Below, one piece after another: positions 1-14,560 of a stretch of 32,000 nucleotides of DNA (position 1 is the stretch's first letter; each line of letters begins with the position of its first letter). The DNA comes from an uncultured bacterium (GTDB taxonomy: Bacteria > Auribacterota > JACPWU01): NCBI GenBank assembly GCA_964640155.1, contig CAZXEQ010000001.1, positions 1-32,000 of the forward strand, written 5' to 3'. Made by a program: the position numbers and the translations under genes. The notes beneath the pieces were generated by a model. That model saw nothing but the letters and a program-made list of their open reading frames with translations. It searched no databases and was not told the DNA's origin.

Positions 1-138
1 ACTCTTGCAGTATCAGAAGGAACATCTGGTCTCACCGGTACATCTGGAGAAATTACTACATCCCCCATAGGAACATCAGGAGTAACTGCATCCACTCTTG
101 CAGTATCAGAAGGAACATCTGGTCTCACCGGTACATCT
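1..138 (-). repeat. 93-bp (31-codon) in-frame tandem repeat inside PD linker c
   Basis: Positions 1-45 and 94-138 are identical (actcttgcagtatcagaaggaacatctggtctcaccggtacatct), encoding PDVPVRPDVPSDTAR twice. The array may continue beyond the left edge. Confidence 0.85.
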
Positions 139-323
139 ACAGATGGCATTCCCCTATCATCTACAGGTAAAATATCCGGAATTTTAGGCGTGTCTAAAGG
201 AACAGGCACATCATCTGATGGCATTCCAGTCTCTGTTATATCGGGAAGAACTACAGCTTTGTCAGCAACTCCCGAGGAATCATCAGCACTTGCATCCGCA
301 TCCTGGTGATAATCACCATAAAA
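1..323 (-). repeat. Asp/Pro-rich low-complexity linker (PD linker c), running off the left edge
   Basis: The sequence is FYGDYHQDADASADDSSGVADKAVVLPDITETGMPSDDVPVPLDTPKIPDILPVDDRGMPSVDVPVRPDVPSDTARVDAVTPDVPMGDVVISPDVPVRPDVPSDTAR. Confidence 0.8.
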
Positions 324-3300
324 ACATCCCACGAAAGTCAAAGTAGCTGCAATCAATAACGCCATAGCTCCTTTAGTCCTTGGAGCTATTGAAGTCATTT
401 CAGAAACAGAAACTCCTGTTATCTGACTTAATGCTCTAAATACTTCTTCCTTTCTTGACTCTACTCCTCTTACTCTTTCTCTCTCTTGGGCATTAATGCT
501 CTGCGATGTCTGTATGAATCTCATCACTGCTTTAAATTGTTCGTCTAACGATCTATCACTGTTCTCTACTAACAACTTTACAAATCCTTCTTCTCCTCCC
601 ATCTCTTCTATAAAGATTCTTCTCTCTTCTTCTGTCTTTCTCCTGAAATCATCTAGACTCCATAATATCGGTAATACTTCCCCATATGTCCCATGATCTA
701 TTGCTTCGTGTCCCATGACACTGGCTAATACGCTATTTGAATAGGGTCGCCCTGTTCTCTTATTATTTCTCAGTAAGTCATCATCTATCCCTATATATCC
801 CGGATTAATGACTCGCGCTATCGTGTCTCCATCCGAATATATTCCTATTCCTGTCTCTACATTCCTCATCCCGGGGTATTTTGCTATTACTGCTTCCCAC
901 GCTTCCCCTAATCTCTCTTCTTGGAAACCTGTGTATTTTCCTTCACTGATTCTACCCATTCCTGTTGGCTCTGATTGATAACCTACTTCTCCTATTTCTT
1001 TCTTCCCTGTACGTATCGGGGTGGGGCCTAAGCCTGTTAAATCTATTTCAAATCTTCCTCCTCCGGCTGGGTTTATATCAGAAGGTCTGACTTGATATTG
1101 TATTACTTGATACATTCTGTCTGAGCCCGCTGCCATTAATGTACTTGTCGCTATGCTTGAATTCCATGTTCCACTTCCAAATGTTCCGGGTCTAAATATA
1201 TACACTCCTCTACTATCTTGGAAAACAACACTAAATCCATTTAAAAGGGTAGGTACAAATTGGAAGTTGATCGCTGATAACCCTGTGGCATCTATCGGAG
1301 TCGCTCTGTATACACTTAAATACGCTACTGCTGTCGAGGTTCCTAAAGGAACATTTCCAGAAAATCTGTAAGCTCGACCCCCTATTGACGTAACACTTGC
1401 CGTTGCTCCGTCTAGTCCTCCAACAGATAAATACGTGCCAGGGAAAAATGTTGGTGAAGGTGCGGGGCCTGATCTCGTACTCCCACTTACACTCCTTGCT
1501 CCTGCAACACTAATAAGTAAGGGGGCAGGAGGCATAACATCTGGAACATCTTCTCCACTTGCATCTACACCTACTTCTGTAGGCGGTACATCTTCAACAT
1601 CTCTCACATCAATACTTGCATCCATTCGTACAACATCGGGACCTGCATCTGGACTAGGCATATCTACCCTAGGAATATCCATAGGAGTTACATCTGCGTC
1701 AGGTCGTGGAACATCCATTGAAACCGGTACGTCTTCAGGCCTTGCGTCCATGGGAACATCTATGCCGACATCCGGCCGTGCATCCGGACCGCGGTCAACA
1801 GGAAACGGCATATCAGGAGAAATTATATCTGGGGTTGCATCAGGACTACCTGCATCTAAAACATCTGTTGGCAAAACTACATCAACAGCTGCATCTGTTA
1901 CATCGGCACCAGCATCTGCTCTGGGCACAGCTGTCGGATGAGAAAGTCCACAGCTTACACCTATGAAAACTGCTAATATAGCAACAACCCCCATCACCCG
2001 GTTTGATACGCCACCTAATGTTCTCCAAAAAAGATTGGGACGTCCTATTTTAAAAATAGTTTTTGTTAATCTATTTTGTAGCTCATTCAACCCCTCTTGT
2101 AACCCCTTAAACGGGCTACCTTTTTTGAATGTAGAAATTTGTTTAAAGAAATTTCCAATTCCTCCGATGAGAAGCGTTAACCACGTCCCTCCAATACTTG
2201 CTTGACTAACCGGCCTCCTCAAATTTTTAGCAACGATATCGATTACTAAATTAGGGGCTGAAACTGCTTGCCCTCCTGTTATCTGACTTAATGCTCTAAA
2301 TACTTCTTCCTTCCTTGACTCTACTCCTCTTACTCTTTCTCTCTCTTGGTCATTAATGCTCTGCGATGCCTCAATAAATCTCATCACTGCTTCAAATTGT
2401 TCGTCCAACGATCTTTCACTGTTCTCTACTAACAACTTTACAAATCCCTCTTCTTCTCCCATCTCTTCCACAAACACTCTTTTCTCTTCAGCAGTCTTAC
2501 GCCTAAAATCATCTAGACTCCATAATATCGGCAATACTTCTCCATATGTCCCATGATCTATTGCTTCATGTCCCATGACACTGGCTATCACACTATTTGA
2601 ATACGGCCGACCTGTTCTTCTATTATCTTTTAATAAGTCATCATCTATTCCTATATATCCCAGATTAATGACTCGGGCAATCGTGTCTCCATCCGAATAT
2701 ATTCCTATTCCTGTATCTACATTCCTCATCCCTGGGTATTTTTCTATTACTTCTGCCCACGCTGCCCCTAATCTCCCTTCCTGGAAACCTGTGTATTTTC
2801 CTTCCCTGATTCTCCCCATTCCTGTTGGCTCTGATTGATAACCTGCTCCTACTTTTATCTTCCCTGTTCGTATCGGAGTTGGACCGCCAGAAACTAATCC
2901 ATTGATATCTAATTCGAATCTGCCTCCTCCAGATGGATTTACATCCGCACCACTGATTTGAATTTGTATCACCTGGAATCTTCCTGACAAACCTGCTGTT
3001 CTCCATCCTGATCCCATCACAGTTGTTGGATTTGTTCCGTACAATAAAAAATTCCAAGCACCACTTCCAAACACACCAGGAATAAATAAACCCACTTGAC
3101 CTCGATTATCTCTTAAAAATGCACGAAAGCTATCGACAAATGTTGCATAAAATCGAACATTCATGACATCACCAGTCAGTCCAGTCGCATCCATTCCAGT
3201 TGGTGACAATGCACTTAAATAAGCTACTGAATTTCCATCGCCTACTACTACCGTTCCTTCAAATCGATACGTATTTGGCCCAATCCAACGAGATGTTCTT

Positions 3301-6300
3301 ACGATTGCCCCGCCTACTCCAGCTGGTGTAAAATAGCTGTTTGAAAAATATGTTGGCATACGAAGACCACTGACTGTTTGTCCTTCAAGTCTTAGAGCTA
3401 CAGTTACAGGAATAAGCTCAGGAGCAGGAGGTGCAACATCTACTCTTGTATCTTGTGGAACATCCACCCTAACTTCTGGACCTCTATCAGTTGCAACATC
3501 TAATGCTGCATCTGGTGGCACTGGAACATCTGGTGATCTTAAAGCATCTATCGGTGTTGCTACATCCGGTGAATATGAATCCATGCTCGTTGTATCAGTG
3601 AAAACTCCTGCATCAGTAGTAGTGGCATCTATAGCTGCTACATCAGAAACTGGCGCATCAACACCTTCATCAACTGTAGGTATGTCACCACTCACGACCT
3701 CTATCGGAGCAGAGGCATCGACAACGGAAATATCTGCTGGGGGCATAGCATCTGGGATTGCTGGCATATCAACTGGCAGGCGTACATCTGATGCCGATTG
3801 ATCTACAAAAGCATCAGAAACTCCTGCGTCCGGAGTTTGCGTACGAACATGACATAAGCTCATTAAATCAAAGGAAAAACGACCTGAATCAAGAACATTT
3901 TGCGCAGGAATTTGAATTTGTATGGTTCTAAACTGCCCACTTCCTCCAGAATCTCTCACCATTCCCATGGAAAGCTCCTGAGTCCACACTCCTTCCGTCA
4001 AAGGTAAAGTCGTAGAATGATAATATCTAGAATCTCCTTTAGAACGTCTCTCAAAATCCTCTAACGCTAAAAATAAATCTCTCAGCCCAGTCTGACGAAA
4101 ACGGATATTCATTTGATCGCCCGGTAGACTTCTAGCATCCATAGGCATATCTCCCATGGAAATCGTTATATAAACTCCCGCTCCGGAAGAAATTCCCGCA
4201 TCTTGCGAAACTGGCATTTGTCCTTCTACGCGATAATGATCACCTTCTGAAATAAGTCTAGCTCTTGCACCTCCTAGCGTGGTAATTCTCACACTTGTAC
4301 CAGGAAAATAAGTAGCCGGAGTCTCTTGCCTTCTAGAAGTTTGTCCAGTTAGAGGTGATGTTCCTCTAATAGGAATAGGAGGTGGTCCATCAGTAACTTC
4401 TTCTAATCCAGAATCGGAAACTGCAGCCTCGGCATCCACACCAGTTTCTGCAGCAACACCTTCCTCACGCAAAGGCCCAAAACATCCCACAAAAGTCAAA
4501 GTAGCTGCAATCAATAACGCCATAGCTCCTTTAGTCCTTGGAGATATTGAAGTCACTGCAGAAACAGAAACTCCTGTAATCTGACTTAATGCTCTAAATA
4601 CTTCTGCCTTCCTTGACTCTACTCCTCTTACTCTTTCTCTCTCTTGCTCATTAATGCTCTGCGAGGTCTGTATGAATCTCATCACTGCTTTAAATTGTTC
4701 GTCCAACGATCTTTCACTGTTCTCTACTAACAACTTTACAAATCCTTCTTCTGATCCCATCTCTTCTATAAAGATTCTTCTCTCTTCTTCTGTCTTTCTA
4801 CTGAAATCATCTAGACTCCATAATATCGGTAATACTTCCCCATATGTCCCATGATCTATTGCTTCGTGTCCCATGACACTGGCTAATACGCTATTTGAAT
4901 AGGGTCGCCCTGTTCTCTTATTATTTCTCAGTAAGTCATCATCTATCCCTATATATCCCGGATTAATGACTCGCGCTATCGTGTCTCCATCCGAATATAT
5001 TCCTATTCCTGTCTCTACATTCCTCATCCCGGGGTATTTTGCTATTACTGCTTCCCACGCTTCCCCTAATCTCTCTTCTTGGAAACCTGTGTATTTTCCT
5101 TCACTGATTCTACCCATTCCTGTTGGCTCTGATTGATAACCTACTTCTCCTATTTCTTTCTTCCCTGTACGTATCGGGGTGGGGCCTAAGCCTGTTAAAT
5201 CTATTTCAAATCTTCCTCCTCCGGCTGGGTTTATATCAGAAGGTCTGACTTGATATTGTATTACTTGATACATTCTGTCTGAGCCCGCTGCCATTAATGT
5301 ACTTGTCGCTATGCTTGAATTCCATGTTCCACTTCCAAATGTTCCAGGTCTAAATACATACACTCCTCTACTGTCTTGGAAAACAACACTAAATCCATTT
5401 AATAGGGTAGGTACAAATTGGAAGTTGATCGCTGATAATCCTGTGGCATCTATGGGAGTTGCTCTATATACACTTAAATATGCTACTGCTGTCGAGGTTC
5501 CTAAAGGAACCATTCCAGAAAATCTGTATGCTCTACCCCCTATTGACGTAACACTTGCTGTTGCTCCGTCTAATCCTCCAGCAACCAAATATGCCCCTGA
5601 AAAAAAAGTCGGTGATGTAGCTGTTCCTGATGTCGTACTCCCACTTATACTCCTTGCTCCTGCAACGCTGATCAATGCCGGTGCTATGGGTGGTATAGCC
5701 AAAGCATCTATCTGTAAAGCAACACTTACAGTTGGACTTGTCCCACTTGTGACTTGATCTCCTCCCACTTGAACTTCAATCTGAGCTATATTTGAGGCGC
5801 TAAATCCAGAGGGTAAACTTGAAACTAATATTTCCCCACGACCAAACATACCAGGGGTTACCGTCACAGGAGCAACTCCCGTAACAATTCGTCCAGAACC
5901 ATCTTGTAATTGATAGGTTACTCTTGCAACATTGGTAACATTACCAATACCAATATGAAGTTGACCAGTCACCGCTGTGCCTGTTGTAAAATTTCTTGCT
6001 GCACCCGCTGGAATCCTATAAACCGTAATCATTTTGGATCCGGCCATTCCTCGAGTCACTGTTCCACTTGCATTCCATACAAGTCTTGATGTAGTAACAC
6101 CCGATACGGATGAAGCTGATCTTGATAAGGGTGCTGTACTCCAAGAACCTATTCCTGAGCCCCCTCCGTATCCAACTGTTTCTACAGTCACACCCGGTCT
6201 AAAATCAATTGGACCATCTACAACATTCGTAACGGGAAAGGTAGGTGAAGCTAAAGGTAAATCTGCGACAGTCAATGCCTTGGGTCCACTCAATGCTACT

Positions 6301-9300
6301 TCTACTAGCCCACTTCCATCTGGGATGTGTCGTCCCTCTATGACTCTGATAAGTCTAAATGTATTGGCATTGATTAGGGCAGGTACTTCAGATGCTGGCC
6401 TTCCCATCGCTGCTGCAAGTCGATTGATTAATTCCATTCGGTCTACTACAGGCACTCCCCACATCGTTGCTCGGCCATTTGTTACTTCTACAGTCGCTTG
6501 ATAGGTCGCTCCTCCAACCACTAACTCTGCCTTTAATGTATATCCATTTAGATTTCCTCGTGTGTCCCTTAATCCCGAGCTCCATGTGCTGTCACTTAAA
6601 AATGCCGTCTTTCCTGCTGCGCTGAGTTCACTTGAGAAGCCTGCAAATGCTCCTCCACTGACTCCCGTGTATCTGAGTCTCCTTGTGTACATCACTGTTC
6701 CATGTGCTTCTCTATCTGTGACAACATTCTCTGCTACGGTTACAACTCCCATTGTTCCAAATGCACTCTCCGTTGTGACTCCATAAAAGTCTTCTGTTCC
6801 ATCTGCACTTGCTGTCACTCGTAATGGATTGCTTGCGTTAAAGTCTGTGATGGTTAATGCCTTGGGTCCACTCAATGCTACTTCTACTGTCCCACTTCCA
6901 TCTGTGATGTGTCTTCCCTCTATAACTCTAATAAGTCTAAATGTATTGGCATTGATTAATGCAGGCACTTCAGCTGGTGTTCTTCCCATCGCGGCTGCGA
7001 GTCGGTTTATTAATTCCATTCGGTCTACTACCGGTACTCCCCACATCGTTGCTCTTCCATTTGTTACTTCTACTGTCGCTTGATACGTCGCTGTCCCTAT
7101 CACTAATTCTGCCTTTAACGTATATCCATTCAGATTTCCACGTGTGTCTCTTAACCCCGATGTCCATGTGCTGTCTGCTAAAAACGCTGTCTTTCCTGCT
7201 GCGTTGAGTTCACTTGAAAAGCCTGCAAATGCTCCTCCCATGACTCCCGTGTATCTTAATCTTCGGGTGTACATCACAGGTCCATGTGCCTCTCGATCTG
7301 TGACTACATTCTCTGCGACTGTTACAACTCCCGTTGTCCCAAATGCACTCTCGGTCGTGACTCCATAAAAGTCTTCTGTTCCATCTGCACTTGCTGTCAC
7401 TCGTAATGGATTGCTTGCATTAAAATCTGTGATGGTTAGTCTCTTCGCTCCTATTAAGGCCACTCTCACTTCTGTTCCACTAGTTAATTGGCTTCCAGCT
7501 ACTTTCCTCTGAAGCCTAAACACTCCAATTCGTATCATCCCTTCTAATGTTGTTCGATCTACTCCCGTTGCCAAAGCCAATCTTTGCAGTAACATATTTC
7601 TATCAACTGGCGCAAAACCTACAGCATTCATTCCTACTCTTCTTGGAATATCTATCTGAGCTTGTCTTGTACGTAATACTCCCATAGCATCGCGATATTC
7701 TAATTCAGCCTGTAACGTATATCCTCTTAAGTTTCCCGTTAAATCATTAATTCCTGAGACCCAAGTTGAGTCTGCCAAAAATGCTGTTTTACCTGCATCA
7801 TCCAACTCTTCACTATAACCAAATGACAATCCACCCGTAACTCCTGTCGCAACAAGCCGTCTTACGTATTGTTCACCACTACTCATCACGCCTTCAGCTC
7901 TCGCATCAATGACTGAATCTGTGACTGTCACTGCACTTGAAGAAAACACACCTGAGGTTCTTACTCCATAATAATCTATTTCTCCACTAGCGCTTTCCAT
8001 ACCTCGAAGTGTATTGCTTGCATAAAAATCTGAAATAGTTAGACGTTTAGGTCCGCTCATTCCAACATCTACAATATCGCTGCCATCTGTAATATGACGT
8101 CCTTCAATCACTCTCATGAGTCTGAAAGGATTATTTCTAATTAAACCCTCTACTTCTGAAACAGATCTTCCCATTCTTGCAGCAAGTTGAGTAATTAATT
8201 CCATCCGATTCACGACGGGCACTCCCCACATCGTCCCTCTCATATTAGAAACTTCAACATCTGCTTGATACTTCATACCGCCAATCTCTAATTCAGCTCT
8301 CAATGTATATCCACTGAGATTCCCTCGTCTATCCTTTAACCCTGATGTCCACTGTGCATCTGATAAAAATGCTGCCTTACCTTCAGCATTTAATTCAGTT
8401 AAAAATGCAGCATATCTATTTCTTGATACTCCTGAATATCGTACTTGCCTTGTATACATTTCTGTTCCATGAGGATCTCGATCTGTAACAATATTTTCCT
8501 CTACTGTTACCAAAGGTCGTCCAGTTGAAACATCCACTGTTCCAAAAGCATTTTCTGACTCTACACCATAAAAATCATCTACACCGTCCGCACTTGCATT
8601 CACTCGGATAGTTGTATCCACCATTAATTTTGACATATAGACCACACCATGAGCGCTGGACCCTCCAGCTGATTCCGCAACAGCACCAATATTTCTCACA
8701 TCTTCCCACCGTACAGGTGATTGTCCTGAAGGAACAGGGAAAACCCGTCTTAAATCTTCTTCACGAATTTCAATTCTATTTGAACTATTGGGAGTTGTGT
8801 TAGCTTGCAGTTCTATTCTGAATTTTCCAATTCTTCCATCTCTTAATGTAATCTGAAAATAAATTATCTGAGCTGTATCTGTTTTAACATACCGACGAAG
8901 AACACCTCCTGAAGCGGTGACGGCCCTTCTAATATTTTGAGCAGTCATTTCTGCAGTTCCCTCAAGAGATTGTCCTACCGCAGCGTATTCTCCACCATTC
9001 AAAGTCCAATCCCACTGAATACTTGCGCCATCTGCTACACGTATCGGTTCTGCGTTTGCATCAATATTGGTAACGACAACATCAGAGCTGGATGTCCGCG
9101 TTGGATTTCCAAGGCCAGCAATCTGGGTTGGTGCAGGACCCGTTCCATTATCTTGTTGAACAGTTAAAGAAACAACATTTGCAGTTTGTGTAGATTTAAT
9201 TCCTACTACTCTCATTCGTCCTCTTCTAGCGCGAAAAGAAGGATGATTACTGGGTTCTTCTAAAGTCAATTCAGAAGCAGCTGTTACAAGGTCTCGTCCA

Positions 9301-12300
9301 CGCTCATCCACTAACTGATTTCTTGGAAGACGCACTCGGTACCACGAGTTAGGACGTAACCCTCGCATTAGAAAATGTTTTGTGGTTGTTTGACCAGAAG
9401 CATCAAAACGCGCATTAAAATTGACTCTCATATTGACAGGTTCGCTGCTTCCAGGGGTCATAACTTCTCCACGTGCATTGAGAACTTCATTAATGCCTTC
9501 CAAAAACACCCAGAACACAACGTCATTACCTGTTACCATAAGATCATTTGAAATATTGCGTCCCGCAGCGTTTACTGCCGTAAAAGGGAAAGCCATAACC
9601 GCATATTCTGGCATGTTTTGAGTATTACCATTACGATCTAAATCCCATGTATACCCAATAGCTCTCTCACCAGATCTACGTCCTTCTACAGGAGTTGGTG
9701 ATACCACACTCAATACAAGGCCACTTCCTCCTGTCGCAGAAGTTGCTGAAAGCGCATTCGTCACAAAAGTTGGCATGCCTTCTGCGGTTTGAGTAACTTC
9801 AGCATCTACGGCTAATAAAGAAGGCGGAACACCACATGCCTCCATCAAGATTGCTCCCGCAAGACCTATAGGGGCTGCAACAGATTTAAGCAACATACCT
9901 AAAGCAAAAATGACTGAAATAAATCGACTTCCAAGAAGACCGGAATAATGACGAATCGTTGCAACTCTTTCTCTTAACCTGCGTTCATAGTTAATTGAGG
10001 CACTTGGTCTTCTTGGTTCAAGACCTTTATCTTGTAGTCTTTGAATTAAACGGAAAAAAGTTTGTTCTGTAACTTCCCCTCGCTGACCTCTCACACGAAC
10101 GTCAGATTTATCTTTAAAAGAAACAATAACTTCATAATCATTTCTGTTCGCAGCAGGAATAAATTGAATTTGGTCAATCGTTCGATAAAACTCAGGATAT
10201 TCGTTCCTTAATACTTGATGAAGTCGAGACAACCTGGCTTCTTCATCCAAAAATAGTGGTGGAGCTTGTCCTACAAAAACACTCAACTCTTGTAATAATT
10301 GAGTCCGTGCGGCGTCTCCTAAGTTTAAACCTTTGTCTTCTAGAGCCTCTAAGATAACTCCCCAAAATTGACTGGTAATTAAACCCCCTTCTCTATCCAC
10401 TCCAAGATTTTTAAACACTGTTGTTCCATCAGAAAGACGAATTTGGACGACCCCAACTTCATTCGAACCTGCTCTTACACCATCAGGAAATAAACCATAG
10501 TTTGTAATACGCAAATAAAAAGCAGGATCATTTGCTCGAATGCTGTCTATCACTCTCTGAAGCGCAACAATAACATCATCCCCTTTTTGACCTTGAGATA
10601 AACCAGCTCCAGCCACAGAAGATGAAGATCTAGAGAAAAAATAATCATCAGCAACTACCCTTTCTAAATTAGATCTTTGACGATGTGCAGCTTCATTTTC
10701 CTGCCTTCTATGTTCTCTAGCAAAGTGAATGAACCCTGCGAATAAACCAATGCTCGCCAAAACTATTACAATAATGGCTGCCCATCGACTTGTTCCAGAA
10801 GGCGGACGTATGGATTGAGCAATTAAAGATTTTAACTCTCTTACTCTTTGAGCGAGTTTTCTTTCATAAAGTTCTTCATTTTTATTTATATCTTCCGGTG
10901 TTTTTGTGGGGCCAAAACGAACGTGTTTTACAAGTTCATCTAACTGACGATCCATACCATCTTGTGTCATGCGTCTAGCTTCAACTTCTATTCTTAATCT
11001 TGCTTTTTCTGCTTCATAATCTTTCACCGACCCCACTGCAATAGCACCTAATTTCAATTGCTTACCTTCGCTATTGGGTGCCGTAGCCTGAATCAAAGCC
11101 CATTCAAACTTGACCACAGGAACATAAATCGTTTTTCCATTTCTGAAATAGGTTTGTACCTTAACGCTGACAATAGGATCAATCTTGCTTTTGGCTTGAG
11201 CAGCCTTTTGAGCTAACTCTTCTTGAACCTCTTTCGTTTTTCCTTCTCTACGCAGCTTAAGAAGTTTTTGAACATCGTCCTCACTTAAACCTACGTATCT
11301 AGCGATGGCAGGAATATCTTGAAAAAAAGTATTCGTATTCATCCAAGGCACAGTTGCAGAGTTCACATCTGATGGAAGTTGTGGATCTTCTACTCCTACT
11401 AATGTCCCATTTTGTGCTAAAAGAGATCCACCTTTTTGACCTTCAGGTCGAGAAGCAACCTCCATGACAGACTCAACACCATGCTCTTTATTCATCTCCA
11501 CAAAAATCCCTAACATCACCCAAAAATCTTCGTCAATATTCGAAACAGCATTATCCACATTCATAACATAAACAAATTTTCTATCCTGTTCAAGAAGGTC
11601 TAGCAAAGTACCACTACGAACAAGATCTGCAATCCAGTCAAAATGATTCTGAACATAAGTAATAGGTTTGCCTTCCGGATCTCTTGCTGTTTCAGCAGGA
11701 TGGGCATTTGCATAAGCTAAAATTTGTTCATATTGATCAATAGTGTCTTGAAGAGTTCGACGCCCATCATCGCTCAAAGATTCTCCACCTTCAAGTCGAG
11801 CACGTGCCTTTTTTGCATCTTTCGCATAAGAACTATTTTCAATATCTGCAACAGTTGGAACACCTGCTTGCGCACCTCCTTGAGTGAATAAGCGAAGTTC
11901 TTCTGGACTCCATCCAAAATTTCCATGACGAGCTAAATAATCTCTCGCAGGTTCATCGGTATTCGGTCCAGTCATTAAAAGAGGAAGAAGACCACTGTCT
12001 CTCTCTCCCATCACTTGCATCAAAAACAGTTCAAGAAAGGTATAGGCTCTTCCATCAATGACAATAGCTGGCACTTGAGCTTTTGCAATAATTTTAGAAA
12101 GGTCTTCACGGTCTGTTTCAGGAAGAGCATCAAAAAGGGGTTTAAAACGCGGATCCGCACGCATGGCCTGTACTTTCATACGTGAAGCATCTCCACCAAC
12201 CATCATGGCTGCTACAGCCTCTTTGGAATGAGCACGACCCAGAGCTTCATAGCGTGCACGATCTTCTGAAGATAATGTGCGAATATCTTTAATAAGAGAA

Positions 12301-14492
12301 TGCTCTTGAACAGGCTGAACTCGCTCAACTTTTTTAGTTTTAAGCTTTCCGCGAAGATAGGCCTCATAGGCTGGATCTCTACCTTCTTGTCCAGTAGCTG
12401 GAGCATTTTTTTGAGCATCAAATTCAGCTGCAGCCACCAAACGACTCGAAAGAGCTTCTAATGTTAATGGTTCACCATCTTTTGCTTGAACGATCAATCC
12501 TCTTCGTTCACCATTAACAATAATTTCAACAAAATATCTTCCCCCTATTAGCTCAGGCTTGTGCACTTCAATTTGAGATTCTGCTTTACTTATCACACTA
12601 GCGATAGTTTTACTTAATTTTTCTTTCCATAGAGCCAAAAGTCTTTGCCAATCCTTATTAGATGTCACAGAAAGAAATTGGAGAACCACAATATCTAAAA
12701 GAGATGCGGCTTCAAGAGACTCTAGTTTTCTAGCAATAAGTTCTGCATCTGCACCAGCATCTCTTACCACTCCTGGATCTTGCCCCATACTTAGAGGAGC
12801 AACAACACTATGCGTCTTGGAAGAAACATCCTTTGTATGTTTTACATCTGTATTCCTAGTAACTGGGGGCTGATAACTAGGGGCTGATGCATGCGTCACT
12901 ATTTCCTTTAAAAGCACATTTTCTAATTCGCTTCTCTCATCTTCCATGATGCTGCGATAAGGAGTTTTAACTTTCAGATCTGTGACTTTGGGAGTGACGA
13001 TGACATAAGAGATGCCTTGTTGTTTAAGCTTTTCAGCCATGCCTTCGGTGTGAAAGCCTCCGGCGAGCAAAACTGTGGTTTGTGATTTATGGTTCAATGT
13101 GTTTTTCACCATCACTTCATCACGTTTTTCAGCCACTTCATAAAATTTCTTTAATTGAGCAATATCTTTAGAAACTTTATCTAATGTTTCTAAGCCATTC
13201 GCATCAATTTTATATTTTTTAGCTAAAGCTTGAATGCTTTCGTGAATCTTTTTCCCATCAACTTGCTTTTTACCTTCCTGATAAAGATTCCAATCGACGC
13301 GTCTCAATTCTAAACGATAGAAAGTCTCAATAAATTCTATTTTTTCTTGCAACTGATGGATTTCTTTTTCTTCCTGAGTCTTTTCTAAACTTTCACGAAC
13401 TCTTGATTCCCATTGTCCAATTTCTTTCAAAAGCTGATCTTTGGCTATCGCATCAAATAATTTAACATACGAGATGTAATTTTTAAAATTCTTCTCTGTG
13501 TTAATGTTTTCTTTCTTCTCTTCTATTTTGCTTGAGAGATAAGCATAAAATTGTGCGGGTTCAATTTTTTCTAAGCGCAAATACAAACTTTGCGTCAAAA
13601 ATTCGGCACGTTCTTCTTTAGACATTTTTGGAAGCAAGCGCTCCATGACTTTGGCTTGCTCTTTTTGGATTTGATTAAAATCTATAACTTTTGAGATCTT
13701 TTCAGCTTGAATGTATTGACCGATATTTTTCAAATCATCTGTATTGATTTTTTTTACTTTGCTTTGCTTTTGCAAATATTCCAAATATTCGGCTAATCCC
13801 TTTCCCCCTTTTTCATAGTCTTCACGGAATTTTGAGTATTCTTTTAACTCTAAGTTAAAAACTTTTTCTCTTAATTCTTTTAAGACTTTTTCAGCTTTCT
13901 CAAACATTCCTTCAGATTGGTCTCTTAAATTTAAAGACTTGTCATACCAGTGCACATTCTGTAAATACAATCCCATCTCTTCTGCACCTTGAATATTTAA
14001 TGGCTGATCTTTCACGATCGATAAGTATTCGGCACCATTGATTTTTCCTTTTCTCATGTAATACAGGGCTAATTCTTTTTTCATCGCTGGATCAGGGAAG
14101 GAAGTCAAAAGAGACGTATCAACATTTCCGCTGGCACCTTCGACATTGACCACTTTAAGACCATGTCCTTCATGTTTCTTGAACAAATCTTCTAAAATTC
14201 TGGCTTCATTGGATTGAGCTTCAAAGTGACAGTGCATATCTTGAAGTTGAATAACAATGGGATTTCCTGCCTTACCTTGAAATTTTGATTGGATTTGACC
14301 AAATTTGGCTGGGATTTTGATGTCTTTAACACTTAGCGGAGTCTGATCTTGTGCGTTTTTAGACACACTTTTAGACTGAATTGGGTCTATTTCTAAGCCT
14401 TGAACAGGTAAACTAGTGATTAAAAAGGTAAATGCTGTAAGAAATGAGATGAATTTTCTCAAAGGTTTATTCTTGAAAGTTGACTGCCCCAT
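1..14492 (-). CDS. Second giant ORF, 3'-partial (4,830 codons inside the window), missing from the ORF track; exported or membrane multi-domain protein with UDPGP-like region, 4 tandem repeats and at least 3 beta-domain + HExxH modules
   Basis: Reverse-complement reading from ATG at 14492 (cat at 14490-14492 on +) gives MGQSTFKNKPLRKFISFLTAFTFLITSLPVQGLEIDPIQSK... There is an in-frame TAA upstream at 14520-14522 and no other start codon between. I translated this frame (minus codons starting at positions with p mod 3 = 2) by hand down to position 3 and met no stop. I made exact codon-by-codon checks at 1-60, 11340-11603, 12180-12218, 14341-14492 and at every motif listed below. The four minus-strand ORFs the track lists here (2665..3057, 6388..6585, 6970..7167, 12212..12421) are all in other frames. 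A stop-closed ORF in this frame would have been listed, so its absence fits an ORF running off the left edge without a stop. Confidence 0.8.
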   Translation of the reverse strand, partial: MGQSTFKNKPLRKFISFLTAFTFLITSLPVQGLEIDPIQSKSVSKNAQDQTPLSVKDIKIPAKFGQIQSKFQGKAGNPIVIQLQDMHCHFEAQSNEARILEDLFKKHEGHGLKVVNVEGASGNVDTSLLTSFPDPAMKKELALYYMRKGKINGAEYLSIVKDQPLNIQGAEEMGLYLQNVHWYDKSLNLRDQSEGMFEKAEKVLKELREKVFNLELKEYSKFREDYEKGGKGLAEYLEYLQKQSKVKKINTDDLKNIGQYIQAEKISKVIDFNQIQKEQAKVMERLLPKMSKEERAEFLTQSLYLRLEKIEPAQFYAYLSSKIEEKKENINTEKNFKNYISYVKLFDAIAKDQLLKEIGQWESRVRESLEKTQEEKEIHQLQEKIEFIETFYRLELRRVDWNLYQEGKKQVDGKKIHESIQALAKKYKIDANGLETLDKVSKDIAQLKKFYEVAEKRDEVMVKNTLNHKSQTTVLLAGGFHTEGMAEKLKQQGISYVIVTPKVTDLKVKTPYRSIMEDERSELENVLLKEIVTHASAPSYQPPVTRNTDVKHTKDVSSKTHSVVAPLSMGQDPGVVRDAGADAELIARKLESLEAASLLDIVVLQFLSVTSNKDWQRLLALWKEKLSKTIASVISKAESQIEVHKPELIGGRYFVEIIVNGERRGLIVQAKDGEPLTLEALSSRLVAAAEFDAQKNAPATGQEGRDPAYEAYLRGKLKTKKVERVQPVQEHSLIKDIRTLSSEDRARYEALGRAHSKEAVAAMMVGGDASRMKVQAMRADPRFKPLFDALPETDREDLSKIIAKAQVPAIVIDGRAYTFLELFLMQVMGERDSGLLPLLMTGPNTDEPARDYLARHGNFGWSPEELRLFTQGGAQAGVPTVADIENSSYAKDAKKARARLEGGESLSDDGRRTLQDTIDQYEQILAYANAHPAETARDPEGKPITYVQNHFDWIADLVRSGTLLDLLEQDRKFVYVMNVDNAVSNIDEDFWVMLGIFVEMNKEHGVESVMEVASRPEGQKGGSLLAQNGTLVGVEDPQLPSDVNSATVPWMNTNTFFQDIPAIARYVGLSEDDVQKLLKLRREGKTKEVQEELAQKAAQAKSKIDPIVSVKVQTYFRNGKTIYVPVVKFEWALIQATAPNSEGKQLKLGAIAVGSVKDYEAEKARLRIEVEARRMTQDGMDRQLDELVKHVRFGPTKTPEDINKNEELYERKLAQRVRELKSLIAQSIRPPSGTSRWAAIIVIVLASIGLFAGFIHFAREHRRQENEAAHRQRSNLERVVADDYFFSRSSSSVAGAGLSQGQKGDDVIVALQRVIDSIRANDPAFYLRITNYGLFPDGVRAGSNEVGVVQIRLSDGTTVFKNLGVDREGGLITSQFWGVILEALEDKGLNLGDAARTQLLQELSVFVGQAPPLFLDEEARLSRLHQVLRNEYPEFYRTIDQIQFIPAANRNDYEVIVSFKDKSDVRVRGQRGEVTEQTFFRLIQRLQDKGLEPRRPSASINYERRLRERVATIRHYSGLLGSRFISVIFALGMLLKSVAAPIGLAGAILMEACGVPPSLLAVDAEVTQTAEGMPTFVTNALSATSATGGSGLVLSVVSPTPVEGRRSGERAIGYTWDLDRNGNTQNMPEYAVMAFPFTAVNAAGRNISNDLMVTGNDVVFWVFLEGINEVLNARGEVMTPGSSEPVNMRVNFNARFDASGQTTTKHFLMRGLRPNSWYRVRLPRNQLVDERGRDLVTAASELTLEEPSNHPSFRARRGRMRVVGIKSTQTANVVSLTVQQDNGTGPAPTQIAGLGNPTRTSSSDVVVTNIDANAEPIRVADGASIQWDWTLNGGEYAAVGQSLEGTAEMTAQNIRRAVTASGGVLRRYVKTDTAQIIYFQITLRDGRIGKFRIELQANTTPNSSNRIEIREEDLRRVFPVPSGQSPVRWEDVRNIGAVAESAGGSSAHGVVYMSKLMVDTTIRVNASADGVDDFYGVESENAFGTVDVSTGRPLVTVEENIVTDRDPHGTEMYTRQVRYSGVSRNRYAAFLTELNAEGKAAFLSDAQWTSGLKDRRGNLSGYTLRAELEIGGMKYQADVEVSNMRGTMWGVPVVNRMELITQLAARMGRSVSEVEGLIRNNPFRLMRVIEGRHITDGSDIVDVGMSGPKRLTISDFYASNTLRGMESASGEIDYYGVRTSGVFSSSAVTVTDSVIDARAEGVMSSGEQYVRRLVATGVTGGLSFGYSEELDDAGKTAFLADSTWVSGINDLTGNLRGYTLQAELEYRDAMGVLRTRQAQIDIPRRVGMNAVGFAPVDRNMLLQRLALATGVDRTTLEGMIRIGVFRLQRKVAGSQLTSGTEVRVALIGAKRLTITDFNASNPLRVTASADGTEDFYGVTTESAFGTTGVVTVAENVVTDREAHGPVMYTRRLRYTGVMGGAFAGFSSELNAAGKTAFLADSTWTSGLRDTRGNLNGYTLKAELVIGTATYQATVEVTNGRATMWGVPVVDRMELINRLAAAMGRTPAEVPALINANTFRLIRVIEGRHITDGSGTVEVALSGPKALTITDFNASNPLRVTASADGTEDFYGVTTESAFGTMGVVTVAENVVTDREAHGTVMYTRRLRYTGVSGGAFAGFSSELSAAGKTAFLSDSTWSSGLRDTRGNLNGYTLKAELVVGGATYQATVEVTNGRATMWGVPVVDRMELINRLAAAMGRPASEVPALINANTFRLIRVIEGRHIPDGSGLVEVALSGPKALTVADLPLASPTFPVTNVVDGPIDFRPGVTVETVGYGGGSGIGSWSTAPLSRSASSVSGVTTSRLVWNASGTVTRGMAGSKMITVYRIPAGAARNFTTGTAVTGQLHIGIGNVTNVARVTYQLQDGSGRIVTGVAPVTVTPGMFGRGEILVSSLPSGFSASNIAQIEVQVGGDQVTSGTSPTVSVALQIDALAIPPIAPALISVAGARSISGSTTSGTATSPTFFSGAYLVAGGLDGATASVTSIGGRAYRFSGMVPLGTSTAVAYLSVYRATPIDATGLSAINFQFVPTLLNGFSVVFQDSRGVYVFRPGTFGSGTWNSSIATSTLMAAGSDRMYQVIQYQVRPSDINPAGGGRFEIDLTGLGPTPIRTGKKEIGEVGYQSEPTGMGRISEGKYTGFQEERLGEAWEAVIAKYPGMRNVETGIGIYSDGDTIARVINPGYIGIDDDLLRNNKRTGRPYSNSVLASVMGHEAIDHGTYGEVLPILWSLDDFSRKTEEERRIFIEEMGSEEGFVKLLVENSERSLDEQFKAVMRFIQTSQSINEQERERVRGVESRKAEVFRALSQITGVSVSAVTSISPRTKGAMALLIAATLTFVGCFGPLREEGVAAETGVDAEAAVSDSGLEEVTDGPPPIPIRGTSPLTGQTSRRQETPATYFPGTSVRITTLGGARARLISEGDHYRVEGQMPVSQDAGISSGAGVYITISMGDMPMDARSLPGDQMNIRFRQTGLRDLFLALEDFERRSKGDSRYYHSTTLPLTEGVWTQELSMGMVRDSGGSGQFRTIQIQIPAQNVLDSGRFSFDLMSLCHVRTQTPDAGVSDAFVDQSASDVRLPVDMPAIPDAMPPADISVVDASAPIEVVSGDIPTVDEGVDAPVSDVAAIDATTTDAGVFTDTTSMDSYSPDVATPIDALRSPDVPVPPDAALDVATDRGPEVRVDVPQDTRVDVAPPAPELIPVTVALRLEGQTVSGLRMPTYFSNSYFTPAGVGGAIVRTSRWIGPNTYRFEGTVVVGDGNSVAYLSALSPTGMDATGLTGDVMNVRFYATFVDSFRAFLRDNRGQVGLFIPGVFGSGAWNFLLYGTNPTTVMGSGWRTAGLSGRFQVIQIQISGADVNPSGGGRFELDINGLVSGGPTPIRTGKIKVGAGYQSEPTGMGRIREGKYTGFQEGRLGAAWAEVIEKYPGMRNVDTGIGIYSDGDTIARVINLGYIGIDDDLLKDNRRTGRPYSNSVIASVMGHEAIDHGTYGEVLPILWSLDDFRRKTAEEKRVFVEEMGEEEGFVKLLVENSERSLDEQFEAVMRFIEASQSINDQERERVRGVESRKEEVFRALSQITGGQAVSAPNLVIDIVAKNLRRPVSQASIGGTWLTLLIGGIGNFFKQISTFKKGSPFKGLQEGLNELQNRLTKTIFKIGRPNLFWRTLGGVSNRVMGVVAILAVFIGVSCGLSHPTAVPRADAGADVTDAAVDVVLPTDVLDAGSPDATPDIISPDMPFPVDRGPDARPDVGIDVPMDARPEDVPVSMDVPRPDADVTPMDIPRVDMPSPDAGPDVVRMDASIDVRDVEDVPPTEVGVDASGEDVPDVMPPAPLLISVAGARSVSGSTRSGPAPSPTFFPGTYLSVGGLDGATASVTSIGGRAYRFSGNVPLGTSTAVAYLSVYRATPIDATGLSAINFQFVPTLLNGFSVVFQDSRGVYIFRPGTFGSGTWNSSIATSTLMAAGSDRMYQVIQYQVRPSDINPAGGGRFEIDLTGLGPTPIRTGKKEIGEVGYQSEPTGMGRISEGKYTGFQEERLGEAWEAVIAKYPGMRNVETGIGIYSDGDTIARVINPGYIGIDDDLLRNNKRTGRPYSNSVLASVMGHEAIDHGTYGEVLPILWSLDDFRRKTEEERRIFIEEMGGEEGFVKLLVENSDRSLDEQFKAVMRFIQTSQSINAQERERVRGVESRKEEVFRALSQITGVSVSEMTSIAPRTKGAMALLIAATLTFVGCFYGDYHQDADASADDSSGVADKAVVLPDITETGMPSDDVPVPLDTPKIPDILPVDDRGMPSVDVPVRPDVPSDTARVDAVTPDVPMGDVVISPDVPVRPDVPSDTAR
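324..365 (-). other. Internal lipoprotein-signal-peptide look-alike L3 (M4710 to C4723)
   Basis: RTKGA-MALLIAATLTFVG-C-FYGDYHQDADASADD has the same peptide as L1. It is again followed by an acidic/Pro-rich linker. Confidence 0.5.
693..710 (-). other. HExxH motif (HEAIDH, ORF A aa 4595-4600) of module M3
   Basis: The codon string is the same as in M1 (cac gaa gca ata gat cat). Confidence 0.55.
1521..1949 (-). repeat. Asp/Pro-rich low-complexity linker (PD linker b, 143 aa)
   Basis: The sequence is GLSHPTAVPRADAGADVTDAAVDVVLPTDVLDAGSPDATPDIISPDMPFPVDRGPDARPDVGIDVPMDARPEDVPVSMDVPRPDADVTPMDIPRVDMPSPDAGPDVVRMDASIDVRDVEDVPPTEVGVDASGEDVPDVMPPAP. Confidence 0.8.
1950..1994 (-). other. Internal lipoprotein-signal-peptide look-alike L2 (M4167 to C4181)
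   Basis: The sequence is GGVSNRV-MGVVAILAVFIGVS-C-GLSHP, with an uncharged core and an I-G-V-S-C tail. A weaker hydrophobic stretch, TWLTLLIGGIGNFF, lies upstream at about 2143-2190. Confidence 0.45.
2265..3424 (-). repeat. Module copy M2 (diverged): J domain about 2886-3424, HEAIDH zincin-like domain about 2265-2885
   Basis: The zincin part is visibly similar to M1 and M3 at nucleotide level (compare 2356..2556 with 496..696 and 4654..4854 in the track). The offsets are 2,298 and 1,860 bp, both multiples of 3. The J part is conserved mainly at protein level. Confidence 0.8.
2553..2570 (-). other. HExxH motif (HEAIDH, ORF A aa 3975-3980) of module M2
   Basis: cat gaa gca ata gat cat, in the context NSVIASVMGHEAIDHGTYGEVLPILWSLDDFRRKTAEEKR. 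Confidence 0.55.
3425..3838 (-). repeat. Asp/Pro/Val/Ala-rich low-complexity linker (PD linker a)
   Basis: The sequence is TQTPDAGVSDAFVDQSASDVRLPVDMPAIPDAMPPADISVVDASAPIEVVSGDIPTVDEGVDAPVSDVAAIDATTTDAGVF...SPDVPVPPDAALDVATDRGPEVRVDVPQDTRVDVAPPAP. Confidence 0.8.
3842..4365 (-). other. Orphan beta jelly-roll-like domain J0 (homologous to the J domains of M1-M3 but with no zincin partner)
   Basis: J0 reads TYFPGTSVRITTLGGARARLISEGDHYRVEGQ...GDQMNIRFRQTGLRDLFLALEDF...GQFRTIQIQIPAQNVLDSGRFSFDLMSL. The M2 J domain reads TYFSNSYFTPAG...YRFEGT...VMNVRFYATFVDSFRAFLRDN...GRFQVIQIQISGADVNPSGGGRFELDINGL. The two align over these pieces. Confidence 0.4.
4482..4523 (-). other. Internal lipoprotein-signal-peptide look-alike L1 (M3324 to C3337)
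   Basis: The sequence is SPRTKGA-MALLIAATLTFVG-C-FGP. It has a basic n-region, an uncharged hydrophobic core and a T-F-V-G-C tail that fits the lipobox pattern. It is followed by an acidic/Pro-rich tether. Confidence 0.5.
4851..4868 (-). other. HExxH motif (HEAIDH, ORF A aa 3209-3214) of module M1
   Basis: cac gaa gca ata gat cat, read from + gtg/ttc/tgc/tat/atc/atg triplets. The context is NSVLASVMGHEAIDHGTYGEVLPILWSLDDFSRKTEEERR, with acidic residues 20-28 aa downstream as a possible third ligand. Confidence 0.55.
5685..6250 (-). other. Gly/Thr/Val-rich beta-type (Ig-like?) spacer domain of ORF A
   Basis: The sequence is VDGPIDFRPGVTVETVGYGGGSGIGSW...KMITVYRIPAGAARNFTTGTAVTGQLHIGIGNVTNVARVTYQLQDGSGRIVTGVAPVTVTPG...IAQIEVQVGGDQVTSGTSPTVSVALQ. 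It alternates hydrophobic and polar residues. I did not recognise a family. Confidence 0.3.
6251..8597 (-). repeat. Four in-frame tandem repeats of an unassigned 194-201-aa domain (R1 8597-7998, R2 7997-7395, R3 7394-6813, R4 6812-about 6251)
   Basis: R3 and R4 are offset by exactly 582 bp. The track's shadow ORFs 6562..6786 and 7144..7368 show the same offset. The shared protein pattern is ASADGTEDFYGV..TDREAHG.VMYTRRLRYTGV..AGKTAFL.DSTW.SGLRDTRGNLNGYTLKAEL..YQATVEVTNGRATMWGVPVVDRMELINRLAAAMGR..FRLIRVIEGRHI.DGSG.VEVALSGPKALTI.DFNASNPLRVT. R1 and R2 are clearly homologous but diverged, with lengths of 200 and 201 aa. Confidence 0.9.
9837..9923 (-). other. Second hydrophobic/TM segment of ORF A (about aa 1524-1552)
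   Basis: The sequence is GSR-FISVIFALGMLLKSVAAPIGLAGAILMEACG-VPP. It is preceded by the basic stretch RRLRERVATIRHYSGLLGSR. Confidence 0.55.
10008..10575 (-). repeat. Weak internal duplication (two units of about 75-85 aa) between the two TM helices of ORF A
   Basis: Unit a (about 10320-10575): DPAFYLRITNYGLFPDG..VGVVQIRLSDGTTVF..REGGLITSQFWGVILEALEDKGLNLG. Unit b (about 10008-10232): YPEFYRTIDQIQFIPAA..YEVIVSFKDKSDVRV..QRGEVTEQTFFRLIQRLQDKGLEP. Shared pattern: FY-R-I, beta-like V-V, Q-F---L--L-DKGL. Confidence 0.35.
10716..10784 (-). other. Transmembrane helix (ORF A aa 1237-1259)
   Basis: The sequence is SGTSR-WAAIIVIVLASIGLFAGFIHF-AREHRRQE. It has 23 uncharged hydrophobic residues flanked by basic residues. 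Confidence 0.6.
11090..12275 (-). other. UDPGP-family (UTP-glucose/GlcNAc-1-phosphate uridylyltransferase-like) domain inside ORF A, about aa 740-1135
   Basis: Four motifs occur in the family order:
- AVAAMMVGGDASRMK (12180-12218), compare the glycine loop GGxGT[SR][ML]G
- AIVIDGRAYTFLELFLMQV
- FVYVMNVDNAVSNIDEDFW (11520-11576), compare NxDNLG
- VMEVASRPEGQKGGSLL (11418-11468), compare EVTxKxxxDxKGGTL
A fifth piece, VPWMNTNTFF (11322-11351), compares with FNTNNxW. The codon-by-codon translation of 11340-11603 was verified. Confidence 0.5.
13044..14249 (-). other. Possible Tiki/TraB/ChaN-like motif pair (very tentative)
   Basis: The N-terminal motif IQLQDMHCHFEAQSNEARILEDL has H87 and H89 at 14226-14234. 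The distal motif TTVLLAGGFHTEGMAEKLKQQGISYVIV has H481 at 13050-13052. This recalls the GxxH...Q and GxGH...G motif pair of that superfamily. The spacing (about 390 aa) is longer than I would expect. Confidence 0.2.
14397..14492 (-). other. N-terminal signal peptide or signal anchor of ORF A
   Basis: MGQSTFKNKPLRKFISFLTAFTFLITSLPVQG/LEIDP has a basic n-region (K,K,R,K) and an uncharged hydrophobic core of about 18 residues. Small residues precede a possible cleavage point. Confidence 0.6.
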
Positions 14493-14500
14493 GTTTATAA

Positions 14501-14506
14501 CCTCTT
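14501..14506 (-). promoter_or_regulatory. Shine-Dalgarno sequence of the 14492 ORF
   Basis: The minus strand reads AAAAGAGGTTATAAAC-ATG. AAGAGG (cctctt on +) lies 8 nt upstream of the ATG. Confidence 0.6.
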
Positions 14507-14560
14507 TTATTTGAATAAGTTATATCATCATCAGCCACTAAAAAAGCTTTTAACATACAT

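Follow-up and report, generated by a model that had tools for sequence, protein, structure and literature searches.

The window analysed here is a 32,000-nucleotide stretch of an uncultured bacterium (contig CAZXEQ010000001.1 of assembly GCA_964640155.1). It contains only two long stop-free frames, both on the minus strand: gene A (3-14519) and gene B (14609-31999). Gene A is the subject of this work. Its C-terminal part carries three full cassettes of ~405-428 amino acids, termed M1, M2 and M3, and one partial cassette, all on the minus strand within a single 14.5-kb frame. A 545-bp tract is identical in DNA sequence between the first and third of these cassettes, which were probably homogenised by intragenic gene conversion. 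The likely start of gene A is the ATG at 14492, with AAAAGAGG located 8 nt upstream. The gene exceeds 4,830 codons, and its C-terminus lies past the left end of the window. Residues are numbered from the codon at 14517-14519, which makes the ATG residue 10. The coding strand of the repeat-bearing open reading frame (ORF) is the minus strand, a correction to the first-pass annotation of this DNA. The gene, its cassettes and the identical tracts are arranged as follows.

3-14492, minus strand: gene A, the giant ORF (stop-free frame 3-14519, start context and a syntenic homologue)
4479-5693, minus strand: cassette M1, residues 2943-3347 (protein self-comparison, alignments and a hidden Markov model (HMM) match over positions 1-404)
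3834-4379, minus strand: degenerate copy of the beta-sandwich half only, between M1 and M2, residues 3381-3562 (HMM built from the three cassettes)
2148-3431, minus strand: cassette M2, the middle, mosaic copy, residues 3697-4124 (alignments, HMM and codon divergence)
321-1532, minus strand: cassette M3, residues 4330-4733 (94.9% DNA identity to M1 with no insertions or deletions)
4801-5345, minus strand: identical tract, M1 copy (exact run)
643-1187, minus strand: identical tract, M3 copy, residues 4445-4626 (exact run, with a synonymous divergence (dS) of 0 over ~127 synonymous sites)

M1 and M3 are related by a constant offset of 4,158 bp, which corresponds to 1,386 codons and keeps the two copies in frame with one another. 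The longest mismatch-free run at this offset is exactly 545 bp (643-1187 = 4801-5345) and is flanked by C/A at 642/4800 and G/A at 1188/5346. The first-pass annotation had reported this tract, its offset and both flanking mismatches, and the base-by-base check found the tract and offset correct to the base and the mismatches right. The whole repeat spans 321-1532 and 4479-5690: 1,212 bp with zero insertions or deletions and 62 differences. The range given earlier, 320-1515 against 4478-5673, does lie on the repeat (54 mismatches in 1,196 bp, 95.5% identity) but departs from the exact limits of the block. Beyond the 1,212-bp block, identity at the same offset falls to background, with 13-25 matches per 60 bp. 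The repeat stops abruptly at 320/321 and 4478/4479, and the sequences C-terminal of each copy are unrelated. The duplicated unit is a ~1.2-kb cassette whose copies lie 4,158 bp apart, and the earlier description of a 4,158-bp segmental duplication does not hold: the repetition is confined to ~1.2 kb, and the 2.9 kb between the copies lies outside any duplicated unit. This spacer contains the diverged third cassette, the degenerate half-cassette and unrelated acidic, proline-rich linkers. The HMM built from the three cassettes matches the degenerate copy over positions 6-175 (independent E-value of 7.6e-15).

Internal repeats were found by self-BLAST of chunked proteins, since a whole-protein self-BLAST culls hits that lie inside the full-length self-hit. 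The self dot-plot proposed as a check was carried out as a chunked self-BLASTN with a repeat finder; it returned the same repeat, plus a third copy at ~2148-3431. Tandem Repeats Finder, run on positions 1-6000, detected no array, just two ~40-bp matches of about two copies each of a 21-22-bp unit. The GC content of the cassettes and their GC content at third codon positions (GC3) are the same as in the rest of gene A, and a foreign origin of the cassettes was dropped on these grounds.

M1 and M3 differ in 51 codons, of which 30 carry synonymous changes only and 21 are non-synonymous, and both copies stay in frame. M1, M2 and M3 were aligned by codon, and Nei-Gojobori distances were calculated in 40-codon bins. 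From the N-terminal to the C-terminal end of the cassette, the dS values between M1 and M3 are 1.0, 0.26, 0.23, 0, 0, 0, 0, 0, 0.095, 0.098 and 0.067. The nucleotide differences between the two copies fall into the following segments of the window.

1421-1532: 32 differences in 112 positions
1188-1420: 15 differences in 233 positions
643-1187 (core): 0 differences in 545 positions
321-642: 15 differences in 322 positions

The significance of the identical run was evaluated with a permutation test, in which the observed M1/M3 differences were re-placed at random in 50,000 trials. When all sites are used, a 545-bp run is obtained in 0 of 50,000 permutations. The result is again 0 of 50,000 when the diverged first 40 codons are left out (analytic bound of 3e-8), and with third codon positions alone the identical run is attained once in 50,000 permutations. 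Chance is excluded as the source of the 545-bp identity. The core tract takes in the C-terminal end of the beta-sandwich half, the linker and the initial half of the HExxxH domain, ignoring the domain borders. Because it extends across two predicted domains, constraint at the protein level cannot explain the identity at synonymous sites.

The middle cassette is uneven in the same way. M2 had been described as much more diverged than the other two copies and placed at 2265-3424. This description is accurate for the N-terminal half, where synonymous sites are saturated relative to M1 and M3 (dS of ~0.9 to >2). In contrast, the C-terminal half of M2 has a dS of only 0.13-0.47 and a DNA identity of 88-92%, and the cassette extends over 2148-3431. 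A contrast case is available within the same gene: the youngest pair of ~195-amino acid repeats (offset of 582 bp) is uniformly ~88% identical, and its longest exact run is 62 bp. Unlike the cassettes, these repeats look, from their sequence, like an undisturbed older duplication.

Together, these patterns make it probable that M1 and M3 were homogenised by intragenic gene conversion. The data speak for three or more layers of homogenisation, with a conversion tract no longer than 545 bp as the newest. Gene A is proposed to encode a giant, membrane-associated protein in an Auribacterota-like bacterium, with three paralogous C-terminal cassettes, the first and third of which, 4,158 bp apart, would have been homogenised via non-reciprocal homologous recombination, presumably of the RecA type. 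In the earliest layer, the C-terminal half of M2 may have been homogenised with M1 and M3. An older event would then have made ~1.1 kb of M1 and M3 alike, and this region would since have diverged by ~5-6%. A far younger event would have overwritten at most 545 bp in the central part of the cassette and left zero differences, synonymous ones included. The two edges of the repeat can be accommodated in this scheme: at 320/321, the sharp edge is proposed to be due to a block to conversion where homology ends, and the graded edge on the other side is consistent with a variable tract end within continuing older homology.

Several points weigh against this history. That the core is exactly identical is known from one assembly only, and no orthologue with the cassettes could be found; in the closest relative, the contig breaks off at residue 1529 of the homologous protein, ahead of any cassettes that could be compared as orthologues. 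Finally, the data are compatible with conversion in either direction and with differing numbers of events.

An assembly or polishing artefact limited to the core is unlikely, but has several observations in its favour. Here, the cassettes would be real and ~5% diverged throughout, and the 545 bp would have been made identical in the consensus, either through collapse of a bulge in a de Bruijn graph or through short-read polishing of a long-read contig. A 545-bp near-repeat exceeds typical k-mers and reads. Repeats have been reported to fragment giant-gene assemblies in the sister phylum Omnitrophota (10.1101/2023.11.21.568195), and collapsed multi-copy assembly has been discussed for Omnitrophota genomes (10.64898/2026.06.07.730766). 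In addition, the contig of the closest relative stops inside the same gene, and no independent assembly of the locus was found in scans of genome, metagenome and viral contigs. However, two copies with one unique spacer permit a single linear order of the pieces, and the tiers outside the core (5-6%, then 29%), along with the mosaic structure of M2, show non-uniform homogenisation independently of the core. Collapse of just the middle 545 bp, with similarly diverged flanks resolved on either side, would also need special circumstances.

A single recent 1.2-kb duplication, inserted in frame 4,158 bp away and followed by point mutation only, with no conversion, is very improbable. The overall identity of 94.9% and the lack of insertions or deletions agree with such an event, and the sharp end at 320/321 might be its breakpoint. 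In contrast, dS along M1/M3 is non-uniform, ranging from 0 to ~1.0, and none of the 50,000 permutations yielded the identical run. Moreover, the graded decay on the N-terminal side leads into sequence that is old but homologous. The heterogeneous dS, the permutation results, the mosaic structure of M2 and the ~195-amino acid control therefore reject a single recent duplication. The first-pass annotation had left the choice between a very recent duplication and gene conversion that is still ongoing; the tiers of dS and the permutations leave the second of these standing and remove the first. A false duplication, with one cassette only and a contig in which two strain variants were joined or a segment was repeated, is barely credible: nothing specific speaks for it apart from the generic risk of metagenome assembly that the first-pass annotation had raised, whereas M1 and M3 each have their own unique surroundings and show 62 differences, a diverged third copy and a fourth partial copy sit between them, a single 14.5-kb reading frame is kept in a 40% GC genome, and the private substitutions in 51 codons (30 synonymous only) together with the kept frame therefore identify two real loci.

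Each of the cassettes thus compared is built from a beta-sandwich half, an HExxxH half and a hydrophobic, lipobox-like segment that contains a Cys residue. The HEAIDH (HExxxH) motif lies at the following positions.

4851-4868, minus strand: motif in M1
2553-2570, minus strand: motif in M2
693-710, minus strand: motif in M3

When 1.84 billion representative proteins were searched exhaustively with a HMMER profile of the cassette, only two distant relatives emerged, P0004 and P0005. The former is a 333-amino acid fragment from a 1-kb JGI contig. The latter is a protein of 2,553 amino acids that has an N-terminal domain of the gene A type and one cassette-like domain, with no contig on record. 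The succession of H-E-x-x-x-H and then G-E-x-x-P is invariant across M1-M3, P0004 and P0005, and the first motif occurs in the variants HEAIDH, HETTDH and HELTPH. A word-indexed protein search with the cassette gave no match, and the profile version of this search gave P0004 only. No match was obtained in single-cassette scans of genome, metagenome and viral contigs or in a profile scan of metagenomes. Comparison of the cassette with PDB sequences returned noise only (E of 1.9), and comparison with Pfam at E<=10 returned none. Judged by its sequence, the cassette is close to an orphan, and its HExxxH half is an orphan domain.

Structural models were prepared with AlphaFold2. The C-terminal half is predicted to form a small beta/alpha unit and, C-terminal to it, a helical bundle (predicted local distance difference test (pLDDT) of 78.8 and predicted template modelling score (pTM) of 0.76), and this model has no match with E < 0.1 in the PDB or BFVD. 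In the model of the full cassette (pLDDT of 70.6), the N-terminal half is a beta-sandwich. Weak matches to the jelly rolls of CBM11, CBM30 and GH11 were observed for the full-cassette model (E of 1e-4 to 1e-2), although the target template modelling score (TM-score) is only ~0.41, the root mean square deviation is 6-12 Å and there is no sequence-family match. Our working reading of these models is a glycan-binding-like module joined to a possible metal-binding domain, which is a lead and not a result. The HExxxH domain has in common with the zincins a His-Glu...His arrangement on a predicted helix and a conserved Glu soon after. In contrast, the zincin motif is HExxH, with one helical turn between its two His residues, whereas the spacing here is HExxxH. 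Assignment as a zincin metallopeptidase was rejected on this spacing, along with the lack of a Pfam, NCBIfam or PDB sequence match and of a structural match in the PDB or BFVD.

The third element of the cassette, the lipobox-like segment, is present at three positions in gene A.

4479-4529, minus strand: segment in M1 equivalent to that of M3, residues 3331-3347
1947-1997, minus strand: related segment after M2, residues 4175-4191
321-371, minus strand: lipobox-like hydrophobic segment KGAMALLIAATLTFVGCF that ends M3, residues 4717-4733 (sequence pattern)

These segments follow a pattern of basic residues, a hydrophobic run, G/S-Cys and then an acidic, proline-rich linker. In the segments PRTKGAMALLIAATLTFVGC and NRVMGVVAILAVFIGVSC, the residue at -3 is F or V, compared with the lipobox [LVI][ASTVI][GAS]-Cys. 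Gene A contains three such segments, P0005 two, P0004 one and gene B none. Elsewhere, in the other long ORFs of 80 related loci, one is found in 257,249 residues; the pattern is enriched ~150-fold over these other ORFs. The segments of gene A lie 3,300-4,700 residues inside the ORF and not at the N-terminal location of a lipoprotein signal peptide; as internal segments, they do not qualify as signal peptides and may be no more than membrane anchors. Their sequence pattern suggests that gene A may have grown by the joining of lipoprotein-like units. A fuller version of this idea is doubtful, with the odds well against it. In this version, the cassette would be an undescribed functional unit that combines a beta-sandwich for glycan binding with a new metal-dependent HExxxH domain and a lipoprotein-type signal of internal position. 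Gene A would consist of lipoprotein-like units fused head to tail, and cleavage and lipidation at its internal Cys residues might yield several surface lipoproteins, with conversion keeping the catalytic cores identical. Just before the hydrophobic segment, the Shine-Dalgarno-like sequence AAAGGAGCTATG is found at 4521-4532 and at 363-374 of the window. An internal translation start at this sequence was considered and set aside: the spacing to the ATG is 2 nt, compared with 8 nt at the real start, and the occurrence is treated as a coincidence. The Lys-Gly-Ala-Met codons probably account for AAAGGAGCTATG.

The remainder of gene A and its neighbour are also poorly annotated. The sole Pfam match in gene A is a partial one to the UDPGP-like family PF01704 (UTP-glucose-1-phosphate uridylyltransferase) at residues 941-1084 (window 11268-11699), with an E-value of 2.4e-10, and this is the only curated domain across the more than 10,600 residues of genes A and B. 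An NCBIfam scan of gene A returned none above noise. Reading the giant ORFs as a nonribosomal peptide synthetase or polyketide synthase was dropped, as such domains were absent in the domain scans. At its N-terminus, gene A has a domain of ~460 amino acids (residues 52-510, window 12990-14366) with the motifs QDxHCxxEAQ...GGFHTEG, for which there is no Pfam or NCBIfam model. Among species-representative genomes, this domain matches 258 loci, mostly in metagenome-assembled genomes (MAGs) of Candidatus Omnitrophota, at 28-35% identity; one NCBI record names a homologue 'VWA domain-containing protein'. The best match, at 82%, is in the Candidatus Auribacterota MAG SZ_szas25bin.51 (JAYRIK010000164.1). 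Auribacterota is a PVC-group phylum described from MAGs (PMC9324843). JAYRIK010000164.1 is syntenic with the window: a homologue of gene B (78% amino acid identity) comes first and is followed by a homologue of gene A (84% amino acid identity), which aligns over residues 1-1529. The locus ends there, at position 14546. On these matches, an Auribacterota bacterium is the most likely source of the window. The repeat region of this closest relative is missing from its assembly, which may fit fragmentation caused by repeats.

Further features were observed in both genes. The ~195-amino acid repeats of gene A comprise four units at 6177-8609 of the window (residues 1971-2781) and have no family match. 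A direct tandem duplication of 93 bp (exact over 45 nt and 96% identical over 50 nt) is found at 1-143, abutting the window edge, and codes for an acidic, proline-rich linker, PDVPVRPDVPSDTAR. Gene B (14609-31999, minus strand) is likewise a giant ORF, which extends past the right end of the window and exceeds 5,797 codons. No Pfam match was obtained for it, and it contains two clusters of transmembrane-like helices, at 23672-24766 and 19202-19879.

The repeat pair in gene A provides a clean and statistically supported case of probable intragenic conversion between dispersed repeats in a giant gene of the Auribacterota/Omnitrophota group. For genome reconstruction, the 545-bp identical pair is a spot where assemblies of such genes break or collapse. 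In the organism, the same pair would be expected to serve as a substrate for losing or gaining 1,386 codons in frame. Both possibilities, a changing number of modules and an effect on assembly, had been raised in the first-pass annotation and are plausible. The orphan HExxxH...GE..P domain and the cassette-associated lipobox-like segments offer leads for biochemistry. Current understanding is not overturned by any of these observations.

Among known systems, long coding repeats are a feature of Gram-positive surface proteins such as alpha C/Rib, SasG/Aap and Esp, in which recombination keeps the copies identical at synonymous sites and changes copy number in frame. These proteins carry head-to-tail arrays of whole identical units. 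In contrast, gene A has no head-to-tail array; its identity takes the form of a mosaic tract, and a diverged copy lies between the two that share it. In Helicobacter pylori cagY, direct repeats inside the gene of a large surface-exposed protein recombine to produce in-frame variants (PMC2194252). The likeness to gene A lies in the presence of direct repeats within one large gene. The repeats of cagY are short and very numerous, and experiments have demonstrated their rearrangement, whereas gene A has three long (1.2-kb) dispersed cassettes whose non-reciprocal homogenisation we infer from one sequence. Intragenic homogenisation has also been described for spidroin repeats (PMC3563967, PMC3933166). 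The similarity here is the concerted evolution of repeats of several hundred bp in a very long gene, although spidroins are structural silk proteins with eukaryotic tandem repeats.

A further comparison is with the giant proteins of Omnitrophota, which are very long, repeat-rich, poorly annotated and multi-transmembrane, and have characteristic domain sets that include SecA_DEAD, glycosyltransferases and dockerin/TSP3 (10.1101/2023.11.21.568195). Gene A shares with them long unannotated ORFs, hydrophobic segments, repeated domains and homology of the N-terminal domain, and a carbohydrate-binding-like beta-sandwich, to which the cassette may have a counterpart, has been reported for the dockerin-type giants. 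In contrast, the closest relative of gene A belongs to Auribacterota, and the lengths seen for genes A and B (>4.8 and >5.8 thousand amino acids, with both genes cut by the window) are below the 'giant' class. A 2026 preprint found, from tandem scans only, that nucleotide-level repeats have largely decayed in such giant genes (10.64898/2026.06.07.730766). In gene A, however, a 545-bp identical pair persists; it is dispersed and would therefore escape tandem-repeat scans. The process at this locus is the familiar concerted evolution of coding repeats, and its mechanism is ordinary. What is distinctive is that the copies are dispersed and not tandem, that the diverged middle copy is skipped, and that both the host gene and the domain are uncharacterised.

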